Shown piece by piece: positions 5,842-34,112 of a stretch of 38,988 nt of DNA. The translations under genes and the position numbers were made by a program. The notes under the pieces are model-generated. The model worked only from the letters and a program-made list of their open reading frames with translations, had not been told where the DNA came from and made no database searches. The DNA is from Spirochaetota bacterium (GTDB lineage: Bacteria; Spirochaetota; Brevinematia; DTOW01), in assembly GCA_028276145.1 (NCBI GenBank), contig JAPYWX010000001.1, positions 1 to 38,988 on the forward strand, read 5' to 3'. Position 1 is the first letter of the stretch. Every line of letters begins with the position of its first letter.

Positions 5842-5906
5842 TCCTAATAGAGAAAAATTATTTTTGACAAAATCTTTTAAGAATGCAGAGATAACACGAA
5901 TCTCTG
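5842..5906 (+). repeat. Conserved 65-nt intergenic block, copy A; ends in hairpin CAGAGAT-aacacga-ATCTCTG (5886-5906)
   Basis: An ungapped alignment with 33641-33705 gives 47/65 identities by hand count. The core TTTTGAyAAAAyCTTTTAAGArTGCArAGAT matches at 26/30. A more diverged third copy lies around 25141-25187. Confidence 0.65.
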
Positions 5907-5923
5907 TTCTAAAAATAGGTAGA

Positions 5924-6003
5924 GTGCTCAACAGCACAGAGTGCTTAATAGCACGGGGTACTTAATAGCACGGGATGCTCAATAGCACTTAGTGCTATAG
6001 CAC
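5924..6003. repeat. Tandem array of 5 short palindromes (GTGCT-N2-4-AGCAC), about 17-nt period
   Basis: GTGCTCAACAGCAC 5924-5937; GTGCTTAATAGCAC 5941-5954; GTACTTAATAGCAC 5958-5971; ATGCTCAATAGCAC 5975-5988; GTGCTATAGCAC 5992-6003. Confidence 0.85.
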
Positions 6004-6050
6004 TTTCTCAATTGAGTGCTTGTAAAACCTTCCATATTCGGAGAGTGTAG

Positions 6051-6084
6051 AGAGGTGAAAACCTCTCAGAGGTGAAAACCTCTC
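6051..6084 (+). repeat. Two tandem 17-nt hairpins AGAGGT-GAAA-ACCTCT (GNRA loops)
   Basis: 6051-6066 and 6068-6083 are identical 6-bp stems with GAAA loops. ACCTCT-c-AGAGGT between them can form an alternative hairpin. The pair lies about 80 nt upstream of the GldG-like ATG. Confidence 0.7.
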
Positions 6085-6165
6085 TAAGAAAAATAAGAGT
6101 CAACCGAACCAAAACAATTTGAAACAGATACATTTTGAAATTTATTATTCACTTTAAGGTTGAGT

Positions 6166-14057: not shown

Positions 14058-14114
14058 AATTATATTTTAACGCTCAAGTCACTTGAAAAATACCTAATGT
14101 AAGCACTAACTTTA

Positions 14115-14136
14115 GAGGGAGGCTACCGCCTCCCTT
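14115..14136. other. Orphan GC-rich hairpin GGGAGGC-tacc-GCCTCCC in a divergent promoter region
   Basis: A 7-9 bp GC-rich stem in otherwise AT-rich DNA, between the pyrK-like start (14057, minus) and the cysS start (14297, plus). No gene lies upstream on either strand for it to terminate. Confidence 0.5.
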
Positions 14137-14296
14137 GAAATCTTTACTAAATTTTAATAGCTGTCATGCACTTAAAGCAGATAAAAGATGAATGGCAAAT
14201 TCTAATATTGTTGTTTACTTTGTAAAAATAGGCTAAGCCTGTTTTTCAAAAATCTTCTTGAAAAAATTTTCACAGCAACTTGATAATTTTTTACTT

Positions 14297-25062: not shown

Positions 25063-25113
25063 TACTGAATTATACAACTAAAAAAGGTCCCTTTTCTAAC
25101 TTTTATACTCAAA

Positions 25114-25328
25114 GTGCTTCTTAAGCACAGGACTCTTCAGGAAAATTCGCTATTTATGACTTAATTAAGAATGTGCTGAAAGCACATTTCAAGTAATTCT
25201 ATCTCCCACACCATTTCTCAGAAAGGCTTTGCCCTACCTCATTCTCAACAACATCTAAACAAAAAAGTACTACTCAGCACTAACATTATTAAGCACAAGT
25301 GCTAATTGATACGAAGTGTTTCAAACAC
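25114..25328. repeat. Cluster of GTGCT..AGCAC-type palindromes and variants
   Basis: GTGCTTCTTAAGCAC 25114-25128; TTAAGAATGTGCTGAAAGCACAT 25165-25187; GTACTACTCAGCAC 25267-25280; AGCACAAGTGCT 25292-25303; GTGTTTCAAACAC 25316-25328. Confidence 0.8.
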
Positions 25329-25396
25329 AAAGTGCTAAATACATTACATTGAAAATGAATTATCTTACAATTACAATTCAAATGAAGGAGGAGGAC

Positions 25397-26185
25397 ATGT
25401 CAAATAAAAAAGTTATAACATATCTAATCTTAAACATAGTAGGGCTAATATCTATGATTACTATTAATCTCATGTCAACCTTAGGTATAATAGGAGGCAT
25501 AAAACCAGATTATATATCAAATAAGTACTTCACTATACTGACACCCCCAGGCTTTTCCTTCTCTATATGGGGGATTATATACCTACTTCTGATTCTTTTT
25601 ATTGGTTATCAAATTTATTCAATTATCAAAAAAGAAAATCATATAATTCTAAAGCCAGGTATATGGTTTTTCTTGAGTTCAGTTTTTAACATATCTTGGG
25701 TTTTTGCTTGGCACTATCAAATGATAGAAATTTCGTTCTTATCCATTCTCTTACTTCTCATATCGCTAATAATGGTTTACAAAGGTATAGGTATCGGGAA
25801 ACTAGAAGTTTCTCGGGTTGAAAAATTATTCATGTACGTACCATTCAGTATATACTTAGGATGGATAACAGTAGCTACACTCTTAAATCTTCTAGTTTTA
25901 CTGACAAAACTAAACTTCACGCTTTACTTAAACTACCAAGATTTCTGGGGACTAGGTGGTTCAATACTCTTACTATTCATAACTCTGTCAGTGTTGTTTT
26001 TCAGAAACGACATATTCTACGCCCTAACAATAATCTGGGCATCCTCGGGAGCTCTATACTCAAGACTATATGACACAAGAATAGTAGTGGACAGCTTTAC
26101 AACTTCATCTTTAATTGCAACTATAACTATAGTGACTTTGTACACATTGATAAAACTGATAAGAGGCAAAATATACTCTTTCTAA
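25397..26185 (+). CDS. Polytopic membrane protein, possibly TspO/MBR-like (tryptophan-rich sensory protein family)
   Basis: About 8 predicted TM segments. LTPPGFSFSIWGIIYLLL and the W-rich SWVFAWHY resemble long TspO-like proteins as I recall them. ATG at 25397 is preceded by GGAGGAGG. The ORF-track GTG at 25316 lies inside a palindrome and is rejected. Confidence 0.45.
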   Translation: MSNKKVITYLILNIVGLISMITINLMSTLGIIGGIKPDYISNKYFTILTPPGFSFSIWGIIYLLLILFIGYQIYSIIKKENHIILKPGIWFFLSSVFNISWVFAWHYQMIEISFLSILLLLISLIMVYKGIGIGKLEVSRVEKLFMYVPFSIYLGWITVATLLNLLVLLTKLNFTLYLNYQDFWGLGGSILLLFITLSVLFFRNDIFYALTIIWASSGALYSRLYDTRIVVDSFTTSSLIATITIVTLYTLIKLIRGKIYSF

Positions 26186-26186
26186 T

Positions 26187-26321
26187 GTGCTCTTCAGCAC
26201 CAATGTGCTTTTAGCATCCTTAGAAGACTTTGCAAACTTACTATTTATTGTAAAAGGCTCTGACTCCTACAAACTCTTCAGCAGTTGAATAAGTGCTTAA
26301 AGCACTTTGTGCTTAAGGCAC
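26187..26321. repeat. Two pairs of GTGCT..AGCAC palindromes in a convergent intergenic region
   Basis: GTGCTCTTCAGCAC 26187-26200; GTGCTTTTAGCAT 26205-26217; TTGAATAAGTGCTTAAAGCAC 26285-26305; GTGCTTAAGGCAC 26309-26321. Confidence 0.8.
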
Positions 26322-26440
26322 AAAAGAAAAAAGTAATTTTAAATACTTTTATGTCTACTAAATCTCTGAGTTTTTTACAATCAAATATAACTTTCCATAA
26401 GCGTATTTCATACGCTATAAAGTATTACATAAATGATAAA

Positions 26441-27205
26441 CTACAACAAAAAGTAAATATTAAGGTACGGAATAACTGGCAGACTGATTTTGAATTCTTT
26501 CACCTCAAAACTAGTTCCTGGATAAATCATACCCAGTTGTAAATTAAGAAGGCTATCCCACAGAGAAATAGTCATTCCAATTGAGTACATTGGAGAATGA
26601 ACGAAATTACTACAAAAGAGTATCCTACTGTCTTGGCCATCTAATTTTGTCAGAAACTCAAAATAGATTGGCAAATAAAATTTTTCACCCAAAGACAAAA
26701 ATTCAGAGTACACAAATCCACCCACAAACCTCTCATTAGCTTCACTACCACTTGAAATTTTAAAAGTGAAACCTAAAACAAAGACATTATAAGGAATAAT
26801 TTCCTGCGCCAAACTCAAGAAAACTGTAGAAATAGGTGGATTTACCCTAAAATTTGATATTGAATAGGCTCTTAACACTTTGTCACTTTCATCTATTATA
26901 CCTTCTAATGAAGCACCAAACATCGTAATTCTATCACTTAACAACTCTATTTCTTGTACTAATTTAATTTCAGCATTGTAGATACCTATAATGTATTGGG
27001 GCCACTTTATTTTTGTATCTACACCCAAAGAATAGAATTTATAAGAAAACCCAATATCCATTAACCCCAATTTCAAATTTTTTTGAGGTACTGAAGGGAA
27101 AACCTCAATGATACCATCATTCTCTACCAACATAGCTTCAGAAAACCTGAAGATACCAAAAAGAATAAGAAATAAAAACAAAAACCTTCTAAAAAACAAC
27201 ATCAT
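26441..27205 (-). CDS. Secreted hypothetical protein (254 aa), possibly beta-rich or outer-membrane
   Basis: N-terminal signal-like FLFLFLILFGIFRFSEA. Alternating hydrophobic/aromatic pattern. No motif I recognise. Confidence 0.5.
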   Translation of the reverse strand: MMLFFRRFLFLFLILFGIFRFSEAMLVENDGIIEVFPSVPQKNLKLGLMDIGFSYKFYSLGVDTKIKWPQYIIGIYNAEIKLVQEIELLSDRITMFGASLEGIIDESDKVLRAYSISNFRVNPPISTVFLSLAQEIIPYNVFVLGFTFKISSGSEANERFVGGFVYSEFLSLGEKFYLPIYFEFLTKLDGQDSRILFCSNFVHSPMYSIGMTISLWDSLLNLQLGMIYPGTSFEVKEFKISLPVIPYLNIYFLL

Positions 27206-27312
27206 AACTTCACACCTTTGACCTAAAATAGTGAAAATTCTCAGAAGGTTTTTTCAACAAATCTTCAATTCTGTTGGAAGAACCTTGTGTTTTAAGTACT
27301 CTTAATAGGTAA

Positions 27313-31059: not shown

Positions 31060-31329
31060 AATAACCCCTTTGAAAAAATATTAATTAGATTGTAAAGAAA
31101 AAACTCTTCAAATTCAAATTACACCAAGGTGCTCACAACCTGTGTTTAAAACACAAGTGTTTTAAAAACCTTACATCAAGTAATATTTTATAACATCTCC
31201 AATTGGAAATGCGATAGCATTTCTAACCAAGTAAGTTAGAAGCTCTATCGTTCTTTGGTTTCATATAAATAAGGTAATGGAATACCAAGCATCCCGATAT
31301 AAAAATAGATATTTTTTCAATATCAGACC

Positions 31330-31381
31330 GTGCTTCATAGCACATTCTTAATGTGCTTTAAGCACTTAAGTGCTTAAAGAC
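31330..31381. repeat. Three GTGCT..AGCAC-type palindromes
   Basis: GTGCTTCATAGCAC 31330-31343, identical to 33740-33753. The minus-strand flank TTAAGAATG occupies 31343-31351. GTGCTTTAAGCAC 31353-31365; degenerate GTGCTTAAAGAC 31370-31381. Confidence 0.8.
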
Positions 31382-31423
31382 TAATTAAAGAAGCTTAATT
31401 TTAAATAAGCAGACAAAGCACGT

Positions 31424-31454
31424 ACAGGTTTAACCTGTGACATGTTTAACATGT
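31424..31454. promoter_or_regulatory. Two adjacent 15-bp perfect palindromes ACAGGTTTAACCTGT and ACATGTTTAACATGT
   Basis: 31424-31438 and 31440-31454, separated by 1 nt. They lie 45 nt upstream of the 31500 ORF start. This is operator-like geometry with two dimer sites. Confidence 0.6.
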
Positions 31455-31499
31455 GAATTTTTCAGTGCAATCCAAAAGATTTGAATAGAATCAACATAA

Positions 31500-32210
31500 T
31501 TGGTTATACTTAATTTTGTGATAGACTTAAACAATATAAAAATACCCGTCTCGGCTATATTTGGACTCTTGATAGGTCTAGTAATAGGTATAATCGTTGG
31601 GATTATAAACAAAGGGTACTTTCTAGAAATAATTATGAGGTCAATACTAAGCGGGATAATAATGGGAGGAGTTCTATTTCTAGTAGAACAATTACTTCGG
31701 AACTACACTCCTGAAATCTTTGAAGAAAGTACAAACAACACTGGGATTGACATAAAAGAAGAGGATGAAAACATATCTCTAGAAGAAATATACGGTAGCG
31801 TCAAAGAAGAATCTCCAGAACCTAAGAGTCAAGAGTACACTTTCGGAGATAATTTCCAGGAATCAATATCTGCTTTTGAAAGTGCTGATAGGACTCCCGA
31901 AGAAACGACATTCAGCGAATTAAATGAGTTTTCCCTTAAATCAAGTTTTCCGGAATTTGAAAGAGAATCTTCAGTAGAAGAGTCTTTAGGAAGTTTTGAA
32001 GAACAAAAAAATACAAACCAAACTCCAGAATTTTCACCAGTTGAGTTTAGGAAAATTGAGATAACACCAAGTGAACTAGGAGTAACAAAAGAAAGCAAGG
32101 GTGGTATGACAAACGAATTCATAATACCTCCAAAAGGAAGCAAACCGATACCAAAAGATTACAAAAAGTTAGCTCAAATAATTAGAACAAAATTACATGA
32201 AGAGAAGTAA
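31500..32210 (+). CDS. Hypothetical membrane protein with acidic, E/S/T-rich C-terminal region
   Basis: Two or three N-terminal TM helices (GLLIGLVIGIIVGII; ILSGIIMGGVLFLV), then a low-complexity acidic tail. The start is uncertain: TTG 31500, GTG 31518 or ATG 31635, with no clear SD. Confidence 0.5.
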   Translation: MVILNFVIDLNNIKIPVSAIFGLLIGLVIGIIVGIINKGYFLEIIMRSILSGIIMGGVLFLVEQLLRNYTPEIFEESTNNTGIDIKEEDENISLEEIYGSVKEESPEPKSQEYTFGDNFQESISAFESADRTPEETTFSELNEFSLKSSFPEFERESSVEESLGSFEEQKNTNQTPEFSPVEFRKIEITPSELGVTKESKGGMTNEFIIPPKGSKPIPKDYKKLAQIIRTKLHEEK

Positions 32211-33640: not shown

Positions 33641-33705
33641 TCCTATAGGAAAGAACTATTTTTTGATAAAACCTTTTAAGAGTGCAAAGATGCTTCGTAT
33701 CTCTA
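33641..33705 (+). repeat. Conserved 65-nt intergenic block, copy B; ends in an imperfect hairpin AAAGAT-gcttcgt-ATCTCT
   Basis: See copy A (5842-5906). It has the same length, the same orientation relative to the downstream plus-strand gene, and the same distance of about 17 nt to the first GTGCT palindrome. Confidence 0.65.
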
Positions 33706-33722
33706 AGATAAAGATGTGTGAT

Positions 33723-33753
33723 GTGCTTAATAGCACTTTGTGCTTCATAGCAC
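33723..33753. repeat. Two tandem palindromes GTGCTTAATAGCAC and GTGCTTCATAGCAC (17-nt period)
   Basis: 33723-33736 and 33740-33753. The minus-strand flank TTAAGAAAG lies at 33753-33761. Confidence 0.85.
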
Positions 33754-33944
33754 TTTCTTAATTTTTTTTATATCACAGAGTGCAGAGAGAAGAGGTCTCT
33801 CTTCAGACGATTAGATTGTGTGGAGCACTTAACAGCACTTTTTTAAGATACTTGAGGTAATTCGTAGGGTCCTAACGGAAATTCCTTATCAAACATTGGA
33901 AATTATAAAGAGGCTTTGGCTCTTTACATCAATTAGGGTGTGGG

Positions 33945-34006
33945 GTGCTTAGTAGCACTAGTGCTTAATAGCACATCGTGCTTAAAGTACCTGTGCTACG
34001 TATCAC
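33945..34006. repeat. Tandem array of 4 palindromes (15-17 nt period)
   Basis: GTGCTTAGTAGCAC 33945-33958; GTGCTTAATAGCAC 33961-33974; GTGCTTAAAGTAC 33978-33990; GTGCTACGTATCAC 33993-34006. Hairpin AAAGAG-gctttgg-CTCTTT (33907-33925) precedes the array by 19 nt. Confidence 0.8.
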
Positions 34007-34112
34007 ATCCTTGTTTTAAATTAATAAACAGCAGTAACCTATGAGTTTTTTAAATCCTTACTAGTTGAAAGGAGAAGGTTTTGTAAATTATTCTTATTTT
34101 AAGGTATTGGAT

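Follow-up and report, generated by a model that had tools for sequence, protein, structure and literature searches.

Dispersed intergenic repeats such as the REP/BIME, BOX and Correia families have known effects on transcription, mRNA stability and genome plasticity. A REP is a longer, imperfect palindrome that carries a conserved 5' tetranucleotide; REPs usually occur as inverted pairs, mostly at gene 3' ends inside transcripts, and are associated with a RAYT gene. Correia elements of Neisseria have 26-bp terminal inverted repeats and a TA duplication. The pilE tract of Neisseria gonorrhoeae (GGGTGGGTTGGGTGGGG), a G-quadruplex on one strand of an intergenic region that is tied to recombination and variation, is a single locus with a dedicated small RNA (sRNA) promoter and drives pilin variation, and the CIRCE operator of HrcA (TTAGCACTC-N9-GAGTGCTAA) has 9-nt arms that lie 9 nt apart and is found at one or two sites in a genome, upstream of chaperone operons. 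The BOX elements of Streptococcus pneumoniae carry a tandem boxB array of variable copy number between boxA and boxC; these elements resemble MITEs (miniature transposable elements with inverted repeats), have predicted stem-loops, vary between strains and are present in more than 100 copies per genome, clustered together (PMC3049150). We here analyze a repeat family recognized by the short palindrome GTGCT-N2-5-AGCAC (hereafter the unit, or mini-hairpin) in an uncultured spirochaete, probably of hot springs (Spirochaetota bacterium, GCA_028276145.1), taking as the starting point a stretch of 38,988 nt (contig JAPYWX010000001.1, positions 1 to 38,988, 35% G+C), referred to as the window. A preliminary description of the window had presented the unit as the repeat element itself. 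The repeat is real, but the unit turned out to be a variable-number subunit of a larger module and not free-standing.

The family, apparently undescribed, is probably a composite, structure-forming intergenic DNA repeat of the BOX/BIME kind, with GTGCT-loop-AGCAC as its variable-number subunit in a role that would resemble that of boxB. By analogy, its closest counterpart would be pneumococcal BOX, followed by the BIMEs. Like BOX, it is a composite intergenic repeat in which fixed ends surround a variable-number array of short modules and in which strains vary; it also shares with BOX the predicted stem-loops, more than 100 copies per genome and the clustering of copies. This likeness, judged by the BOX description only, is one of analogy and not of membership: the sequences are not related, the phylum is another, boxB measures 45 nt compared with 13–14 nt for the mini-hairpin, and no terminal inverted repeat or target duplication was found in the spirochaete family, which alone has a G-quadruplex tract in the module, islands between promoters and a promoter-proximal boundary motif. 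With REP/BIMEs the family has in common extragenic, high-copy, hairpin-forming, oriented units that form mosaic clusters with linker motifs. With Correia elements and other MITEs it shares intergenic repeats of ~100–150 bp, hundreds of copies, proximity to promoters and partly inverted ends, but these ends (TTAAGAGTG and CACTTTCTTAA) are only ~9 nt long, imperfect and not universal, and the one clean indel is edged by a 20-nt junction repeat. The G3-N1-2 x4 tract of pilE is almost identical to GGGTGGGTGGGCGGG in this family, in which, unlike at pilE, the tract occurs in hundreds of copies, is embedded in a repeat module and is degenerate in the window strain.

The unit has 13 exact matches in the window, every one of them intergenic, compared with 0.03 ± 0.17 expected from 100 dinucleotide-preserving shuffles, and GTGCT is the commonest 5-bp hairpin stem across the window. 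All five head-to-tail copies with a 17-nt period reported at 5924–6003 are present. When one arm mismatch is tolerated, the number of sites rises to 23, of which 20 lie in five islands and three in coding sequence (9967, 30601 and 31882), the latter being at chance level (0–4 per shuffle). Several of the positions listed initially are such one-mismatch copies (25267, 26205, 26309, 33978 and 33993), 25292 is in the opposite register (AGCAC-AA-GTGCT) and 31370 is a partial copy. Confinement to five islands, as first claimed, is true of these 20 sites, but degenerate pieces are also found at 14058–14257 and 27249–27309. The proposed conserved 5' flank TT(A/G)A(G/A)(A/T)A(T/A)G did not survive: taken alone it is not enriched (20 matches versus 20.6 expected). 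Enriched instead is the junction AGCAC-YTTCTYAA, with 5 matches in the window versus 0.46 expected, and this mostly marks where an oriented array ends on its 3' side instead of flanking it 5'. Two flank copies, those at 5877 and 33676, are part of the 5' start of the larger module.

The same units recur in approximately 1.0 Mb of related sequence, made up of loci that were chosen for carrying the motif and of metagenome populations that are partly redundant; 797 of 812 exact units there are intergenic, though 84% of the sequence is coding. The suggested check by covariance model came out in favor of the family, given that the stems covary and that a model built from 37 modules, all from loci outside the window, recovers the window islands: it finds nine modules in them (E from 3e-11 to 6e-3) and 369 modules in 813 kb of related loci. 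From 5' to 3', a module comprises a lead with GAGTG at its end, a ~10-bp hairpin, an A-rich linker, a G tract, the mini-hairpins and the end TTTCTTAA. Modules are roughly 70–140 nt long, are arranged head to tail in islands and occur in the window at a density of about one per 4 kb. The lead is variable ahead of GAGTG (TTAA, CTCG, CCGG and others), and the large hairpin comes in several sequence types (GAGAGG/CCTCTC, TTAAGGGAGG/CCTCCCTTAA, GTTGGAAGG/CCTTCCAAC and AGAGATGC/GCATCTCT).

Each array holds 1–8 copies of GTGCT-N-AGCAC, mostly in a single orientation; among arrays with at least three units, 129 of 162 are unmixed, that is, head to tail. The unit loops measure 2–5 nt, mainly 3 and 4 (whole unit 12–15 nt), and their sequences fall into reverse-complement pairs (TAA/TTA, TAAT/ATTA, TCAT/ATGA and TAT/ATA), hence the units are oriented. 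Units are spaced by 3 nt (282 cases) or 2 nt (64 cases) independent of loop length, so that the period floats between 16 and 17 nt, and the spacers ahead of the units vary in sequence (TTT, CTT, ATC, GTT, GCG and others). The excess over shuffles, the loop asymmetry and the intergenic bias in the relatives thus bear out the initial proposal of a real, oriented, intergenic repeat family. The G tract, usually GGGNGGGNGGGNGGG in the relatives and degenerate in the window, is intergenic there in 189 cases and coding in 7, and stands 5' of the array in 70 cases and 3' of it in none. Four G3 runs per tract are commonest (122 tracts), with three runs in 47 and five in 2, and the loops are single nucleotides that vary freely (T 349, C 133, A 55), the pattern that would be expected if a G-quadruplex and not a particular sequence were maintained. 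With four runs and 1-nt loops, the tracts of the relatives conform to the G-quadruplex motif (G3+ N1-7)x4, for which folding is predicted only.

Both hairpin types show signs of selection for pairing. In the 10-bp hairpin, 93% of cells are paired and compensatory changes affect 9 of 10 pairs; double-changed cells number 71, compared with 21.9 ± 4.5 in shuffles (reached by none of 500), and shifting the partner columns removes the covariation signal. The arms of the mini-hairpin are near-invariant (542 perfect versus 144 one-mismatch units in oriented arrays). Among mini-hairpins with one change in each arm, counting only units that adjoin a perfect unit, 27 are compensated and 10 are not, whereas the expected compensated share is ~7% with independent changes and ~20% when transitions alone are considered. 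Compensation takes the forms GTGTT/AACAC (14), GTACT/AGTAC (7), GTGCC/GGCAC (5) and ATGCT/AGCAT (1). Given this excess of compensatory changes, pairing is selected in both hairpin types, with the arm sequence of the mini-hairpin constrained as well. An assignment to one strand by G:U versus A:C asymmetry failed, given that G:T and A:C mispairs are equally tolerated in the 10-bp hairpin (15 versus 14 among 1,303 Watson–Crick pairs) and nearly so in the mini-hairpins (56 versus 49); the lack of a G:T preference gives no sign of an RNA made from one particular strand. Most loops of the large hairpin are triloops; those closed by C-G on the G-rich strand are GAA (31), GGA (13) and GTA (10), with 18 complements. 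DNA mini-hairpins with the C(GNA)G motif are unusually stable, and these triloops fit folding as DNA, although this is suggestive only.

Islands turn over by whole pieces. Between strains with flanks that are 96–100% identical, they differ by one 17-nt unit or by one module of ~123–125 nt. Island B (Table 1) in strain L072 has one extra 17-nt unit (at B1) and one whole extra module of ~125 nt inside the B3 array, and island A in L061 is without two units and without the next module. L028 and L040, with flanks that are 100% identical, differ by exactly one 123-bp module, and this indel is bordered by a 20-nt direct repeat of the module junction, which indicates recombination and not a target-site duplication. 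About half of the orthologous island pairs differ by at least 12 nt. No target-site duplication was found at the indels examined, and the islands of L112 and L097 differ wholesale and provide no clean empty/filled pair. The unit and module indels fit slippage and unequal recombination between repeats as the likely cause. The island upstream of gldG also coincides with a break in synteny between the very close genomes L003/L005 and L004: fliW and csrA lie directly beside the orthologous island in one sister population, L003 (7386–8074) and L005 (7152–7840), but not in L004 or the window.

The genes next to the islands are ordinary chromosomal genes (periplasmic binding protein, GldG, MurB, alanine dehydrogenase and PilZ protein). 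Units are held by 56% of divergent spacers, compared with 13% of tandem and 14% of convergent ones, and arrays are co-oriented with the downstream gene in 164 cases versus 52 overall, but only in 47 versus 26 in tandem-gene context. The distance from unit to gene start is broad, ranging from 1 to about 1,900 nt. The divergent islands of the window have one sigma-70-like site at each edge, facing outward, with the modules in between, an arrangement that is less clean at 14058–14257; these sites are consensus matches from a simple scan and are no more numerous than in shuffles. Many island ends carry a second type of mini-hairpin, CAGGY-N3-RCCTG (146 intergenic versus 22 coding), after which comes T5-CAAcAaAATC. 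This boundary (consensus TTTTTCAAcAaAATC from 65 loci) is co-oriented with the downstream gene in 47 of 56 cases, and in 31 of 47 cases it has GTGCT arrays upstream in the same orientation. Its distance from the C of CAA to the start of the −35 hexamer is exactly 18 nt in 13 of 27 promoter-like sites and 17–20 nt in 19, a spacing that puts the T/A-rich boundary at about −59 to −45, which we take to be the position of an UP element. At L015, L070, L077 and L127 the boundary-type hairpin is found in long tandem arrays (AACAGGCTAATGCCTGTTTTTT three to five times, or CCTGAGCAGGTTA-type units), hence this second mini-hairpin family also expands as arrays. A further repeat 3' of the boundary at L055, L063, L073, L118 and L122, CGCTCAGAGGGATTCTTCACTTCGTTCAGAATGAC, sometimes in tandem, seems to form a dispersed family of its own in these genomes. 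Replication-strand bias was rejected as an account of module orientation, which is locally clustered and not uniform along a contig; GC skew is confounded with gene strand (r = 0.81).

A scan of the GTDB collection (one genome for each of 185,579 species) with two adjacent units as query gave five matches, of which four are single high-GC chance matches and the fifth is an uncultured Brevinematales bin, L012. The same query found at least 120 stretches in JGI metagenomes, nearly all with ~35% G+C; among the matches listed, the contigs carry about 20 different sample prefixes, five or six of which account for most. One prefix, Ga0078972, denotes a Yellowstone metagenome (PMC8986864). Contig Ga0308410_1000003 represents the population of which the window is a strain. 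This population is rich in adjacent units yet unmatched among the GTDB representatives, so its lineage seems to be missing from that collection, which would hold only the relative L012, and to be present in metagenome contigs. For the GldG protein of the window, the closest named homologues, from Brevinematia/Brevinematales metagenome-assembled genomes, are 66–67% identical and metagenome proteins 85–97%. The distant Brevinematales L006 and L007 (GldG 66–70% identical) have no analogous arrays with any stem sequence, and viral contigs gave one match only, unrelated and coding-like. The family hence appears confined to one narrow group of uncultured Brevinematales, which in part at least come from Yellowstone. 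Within it, the GTGCT/AGCAC arms are identical in species with GldG only 85% identical, and in L012. In the latter (6024–6108), an array of five units precedes the start codon of an HMGL-like gene (citramalate/homocitrate synthase-type) by 57 nt, and its last two units have the compensated arms GTACT/AGTAC. The window has no Rfam match at the gathering score, the islands give only chance-level matches far below it at permissive E-values, and no such repeats are described in the literature searched on Brevinematales, in agreement with the first impression that no described element has this consensus.

In the reading we favor, that of a BOX/BIME-like DNA repeat, the element would act as a folded nucleic acid and not as a duplex operator, and the folded form would most likely be DNA, with hairpins or cruciforms and a G-quadruplex on the G-rich strand. 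It would sit in the untranscribed spacer between outward-facing promoters, in islands that would often end in a boundary, CAGGY hairpins and then T5-CAAcAaAATC, at the UP-element position of the downstream promoter. Slipped-strand mispairing and unequal recombination between repeats would make the arrays grow and shrink, and a sequence-specific factor or a copying mechanism would keep GTGCT/AGCAC alike across species. The family may be tolerated selfish DNA, or may have been recruited to a role such as structural or topological buffering between divergent promoters. The orientation bias, together with the coupling of the boundary to the −35 box, is a hint of some integration with promoters.

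Several points weigh against this. The co-orientation of module and gene, the fixed distance between boundary and promoter, the small number of compensated mini-hairpin variants and the identity of the arms across species could instead all result from selection on a cis-regulatory role or from a dedicated binding protein. As for the promoters, their placement is suggestive and no proof, and the untranscribed state of the modules is unproven. No mobilizing enzyme, target-site duplication or universal terminal inverted repeat was found; a mobile origin is thus our inference from sequence, and the 5' lead is variable. No perfect G3x3 tract is present in the window, where the tracts are GGGTGTGGGG, GGTAGA and GTGTGGA, hence the G-quadruplex is dispensable in the window strain. 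The polymorphisms rest on short-read assemblies, which can miscount tandem units, and the choice and redundancy of the related loci bear on the counts made there.

A possible, if rather unlikely, alternative is that the modules are functional DNA-structure elements throughout the genome of a thermophile, acting as topological or structural insulators and tuners of promoter output or as landing pads for a dedicated hairpin- or G4-binding protein. Cruciform-prone hairpins, a four-run G-quadruplex and mini-hairpin arrays would then be coupled to an UP-like boundary between divergent promoters, and changes in unit number would give heritable, rapidly evolving differences in expression. The orientation bias, together with the coupling of the boundary to the −35 box, is a hint of some integration with promoters.

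We consider it unlikely that the elements work as RNA, be it as multi-copy sRNAs or protein sponges or as structured 5' leaders, attenuators or weak terminators. The covariation in both hairpin types would suit such RNAs, as would the 164 of 216 modules that are co-oriented with the downstream gene and the five-unit array of L012, which lies downstream of a possible promoter. In 59% of arrays, compared with 22% on the other strand, the last unit plus TTTCTTAA fits a weak terminator pattern with a T-rich tail, and some fit a simple terminator pattern; however, the stems are of 5 bp, and the arrays mostly face the start of the downstream gene and not the end of the upstream one. The canonical terminators of the genome are GC-rich and of another kind. 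One canonical GC-rich hairpin (AAAAGGGGGCTTTCGCCCCCTTTT, 1171–1200), with an A run on one side and a T run on the other, lies between two minus-strand genes and looks like a bidirectional intrinsic terminator and shows that the organism uses conventional terminators unlike the mini-hairpins. There is no conserved promoter at a fixed distance ahead of the modules, successive modules are 10–20 nt apart, and the flanking genes have their promoter-like sites beyond the modules, facing away from them. Of the three roles first offered, that of a structured leader or sRNA is weakened by the position of the modules upstream of predicted core promoters and by G:U not being favored over A:C on either strand. 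Folded as RNA, single units reach −5.1 and −3.9 kcal/mol at 37 °C and −1.6 and −0.4 kcal/mol at 65 °C, which is marginal at hot-spring temperature; folding with DNA parameters at high temperature is erratic for long arrays, and these values were not used. Hundreds of copies per genome would also be unusual for a regulator RNA, and Rfam gave no match. Two specific forms were rejected. A CsrA sponge, prompted by fliW-csrA beside the L003/L005 island, is contradicted by loops without GGA and by the absence of that adjacency in the window and L004. As to independent sRNA genes that each have a promoter, the distance from TTGACA to TAAGAAT is only 9 nt, and the modules are not preceded by a conserved −35/−10 pair.

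Quite improbable is a set of multi-site operators in duplex DNA, in which a dimeric or nucleoid-associated protein would bind each palindrome and regulate many promoters. Near-invariant arms, the preference of units for divergent, promoter-bearing spacers over the others and the position of modules upstream of promoter-like sites are what such a system could produce, and the half-site recalls the AGCAC/GTGCT core that CIRCE also has as an inverted repeat. The CIRCE geometry is not present, however: the arms are of 5 nt instead of 9, 2–5 nt apart and not 9, and occur in hundreds of copies without a link to chaperone genes. More generally, neither the distance between half-sites nor the period of the arrays is constant, distances to gene starts are broad and units also occur between convergent genes (26187–26321). 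Double changes are mostly compensatory (27 versus 10), which a dimer that reads its half-sites independently would not select. The compensatory changes and the variable arm spacing uphold the original view that a hairpin fits better than a dimeric operator of fixed spacing.

Of the roles initially offered, a REP/BIME-like family comes closest, but a formal REP/RAYT system fails on anatomy. That a RAYT (IS200/IS605-type Y1) transposase mobilizes the units through a single-stranded hairpin is very unlikely, although the units are extragenic, high-copy, hairpin-forming and oriented in BIME-like clusters, the arms combine invariant sequence with kept pairing as expected for a hairpin read by a protein, and a single-stranded DNA intermediate would suit the stable DNA-type C(GNA)G triloops of the large hairpin. 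The arms are of 5 bp as opposed to roughly 10–15 bp in a palindrome of ~20–40 nt, no GTAG-like 5' tetranucleotide is present, and the units run head to tail (129 of 162 arrays unmixed), not as inverted pairs (REPIN) or alternating. No match to E. coli RayT or IS200 TnpA was obtained with phmmer among 1,868 open reading frames of at least 80 amino acids from ~1 Mb of unit-rich sequence, a weak test given approximate queries and incomplete genomes. Proteins encoded between islands (25316–26185, 26441–27205 and 31500–32210) are membrane-like or without assignment and have no nuclease or transposase domain. An artefact of chance or composition, that is, recurring short AT-rich palindromes, would fit the chance-level flank motif but is refuted, to the point of being practically negligible, by 13 versus 0.03 units, by 797 of 812 units being intergenic and by an independent covariance model that recovers the islands.

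The features of the window are collected in Table 1. The 289-amino-acid multi-pass membrane protein at 25316–26185, for which there is no Pfam match, has repeat islands on both sides; its annotated GTG start overlaps the variant unit GTGTTTCAAACAC, so the true start probably lies further downstream.

Table 1 Repeat modules, units, boundary motifs and promoter-like sites in the 38,988-nt window (positions are those of the window; E, covariance model E-value).
Feature	Position	Strand	Details
Outward promoter-like site, island A	5786-5758	minus	
Boundary-type motif TTTTTGACAAAATC	5861..5874	+	T5-[C/G]A[A/C]-AAAATC; precedes first module of island A; read directly
Module A1	5875..6013	+	Model match 5875-5945, E = 4.6e-7; 5' lead TTAAGAATG
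A1 hairpin	5886-5906		CAGAGAT/ATCTCTG; then A-rich linker
A1 degenerate G tract	5918-5923		GGTAGA
A1 units	5924-5937, 5941-5954, 5958-5971, 5975-5988, 5992-6003		Five units
A1 3' end TTTCTCAATT	6004-6013		Junction AGCACTTTCTCAA
Truncated module A2	6037..6123	+	E = 3.4e-3; lead GGAGAGTG; without G tract and without units
A2 hairpin	6048-6086		TAGAGAGG...CCTCTCTA
A2 17-nt tandem duplication	6052-6085		AGAGGTGAAAACCTCTC twice, in the hairpin; missing in near-identical strain L018
Outward promoter-like site, island A	6119-6148	plus	
Sixth island	14058-14257 (feature 14116..14250)	+	Module fragments, no intact GTGCT pair; weak model matches 14102-14158, 14214-14262
Sixth-island hairpin	14116-14135		AGGGAGGC-TACC-GCCTCCCT
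Sixth-island boundary AGGCTAAGCCTGTTTTTCAAAAATC	14230-14254		Promoter-like site 14258-14287
Island	25078-25315 (feature 25114..25328)		Unit 25114-25128; one-mismatch unit 25267-25280
Module	25165-25250	minus	E = 3.9e-6; unit 25173-25185; end TTAAGAAT/AGCACATTCTTAA
Opposite-register AGCACAAGTGCT	25292-25303		
Compensated variant unit GTGTTTCAAACAC	25316-25328		
Island between convergent genes	26186-26440 (feature 26187..26321)	+	
Units	26187-26200, 26205-26217		Directly 3' of a stop codon
Weak module	26250-26313		E = 6.4e-3; units 26293-26305, 26309-26321
Short spacer	27249-27309		Further module fragments
Island	31060-31499 (feature 31142..31473)		
Outward promoter-like site	31117-31089	minus	
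Compensated variant unit GTGTTTAAAACAC	31142-31154		
Module	31266-31351	+	Unit 31330-31343; end ATTCTTAA
Unit	31353-31365		Opposite loop orientation
Partial unit	31370-31381		
Second-type mini-hairpins	31425-31437, 31441-31453		CAGGTTTAACCTG, CATGTTTAACATG
Boundary TGAATTTTTCAGTGCAATCC	31454-31473		Promoter-like −35 box TTGAAT from 31481, 18 nt past boundary C
Outward promoter-like site	31481-31510	plus	
Outward promoter-like site, island B	33334-33306	minus	
Boundary-type TTTTTGATAAAACC, then module B1	33660..33763 (module 33674-33763)	+	Model match 33674-33744, E = 2.4e-10; lead TTAAGAGTG; degenerate G tract; end TTTCTTAATT
B1 hairpin	33688-33702		AGATGC-TTC-GTATCT
B1 units	33723-33736, 33740-33753		
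Module B2	33772..33849	+	E = 1.8e-6; AGAGTG lead; degenerate G tract GTGTGGA; damaged unit AGCACTTAACAGCAC; end TTTTTTAAG
B2 hairpin	33784-33802		AGAGAGA-AGAGG-TCTCTCT
Module B3	33895..34006	+	Best model match in window, E = 3.2e-11
B3 hairpin	33906-33926		TAAAGAGGC-TTT-GGCTCTTTA; then linker
B3 G tract	33936-33945		GGGTGTGGGG
B3 units	33945-33958, 33961-33974, 33978-33990, 33993-34006		
Degenerate boundary element AGCAGTAACCTATGAGTTTTTTAAATCC	34030..34058	+	Aligns with boundary family in orthologous L072 row; directly upstream of promoter-like site of PilZ gene
Outward promoter-like site, island B (PilZ gene)	34065-34094	plus	

What is new is that one module unites a covarying hairpin with a canonical four-run G-quadruplex tract and with a variable array of mini-hairpins; none of the compared families does so. 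The repeats mark synteny breaks and hypervariable sites, and are thus usable for strain typing and a hazard for metagenome assembly. If the family is selfish, it would show non-coding DNA persisting in the spacer between divergent promoters, the one 'safe' niche that a compact genome offers, and would also point to an undescribed copying mechanism. If it has been recruited, it would provide hundreds of natural test cases of non-B DNA (cruciforms and G4) at promoters in a probably thermophilic bacterium.

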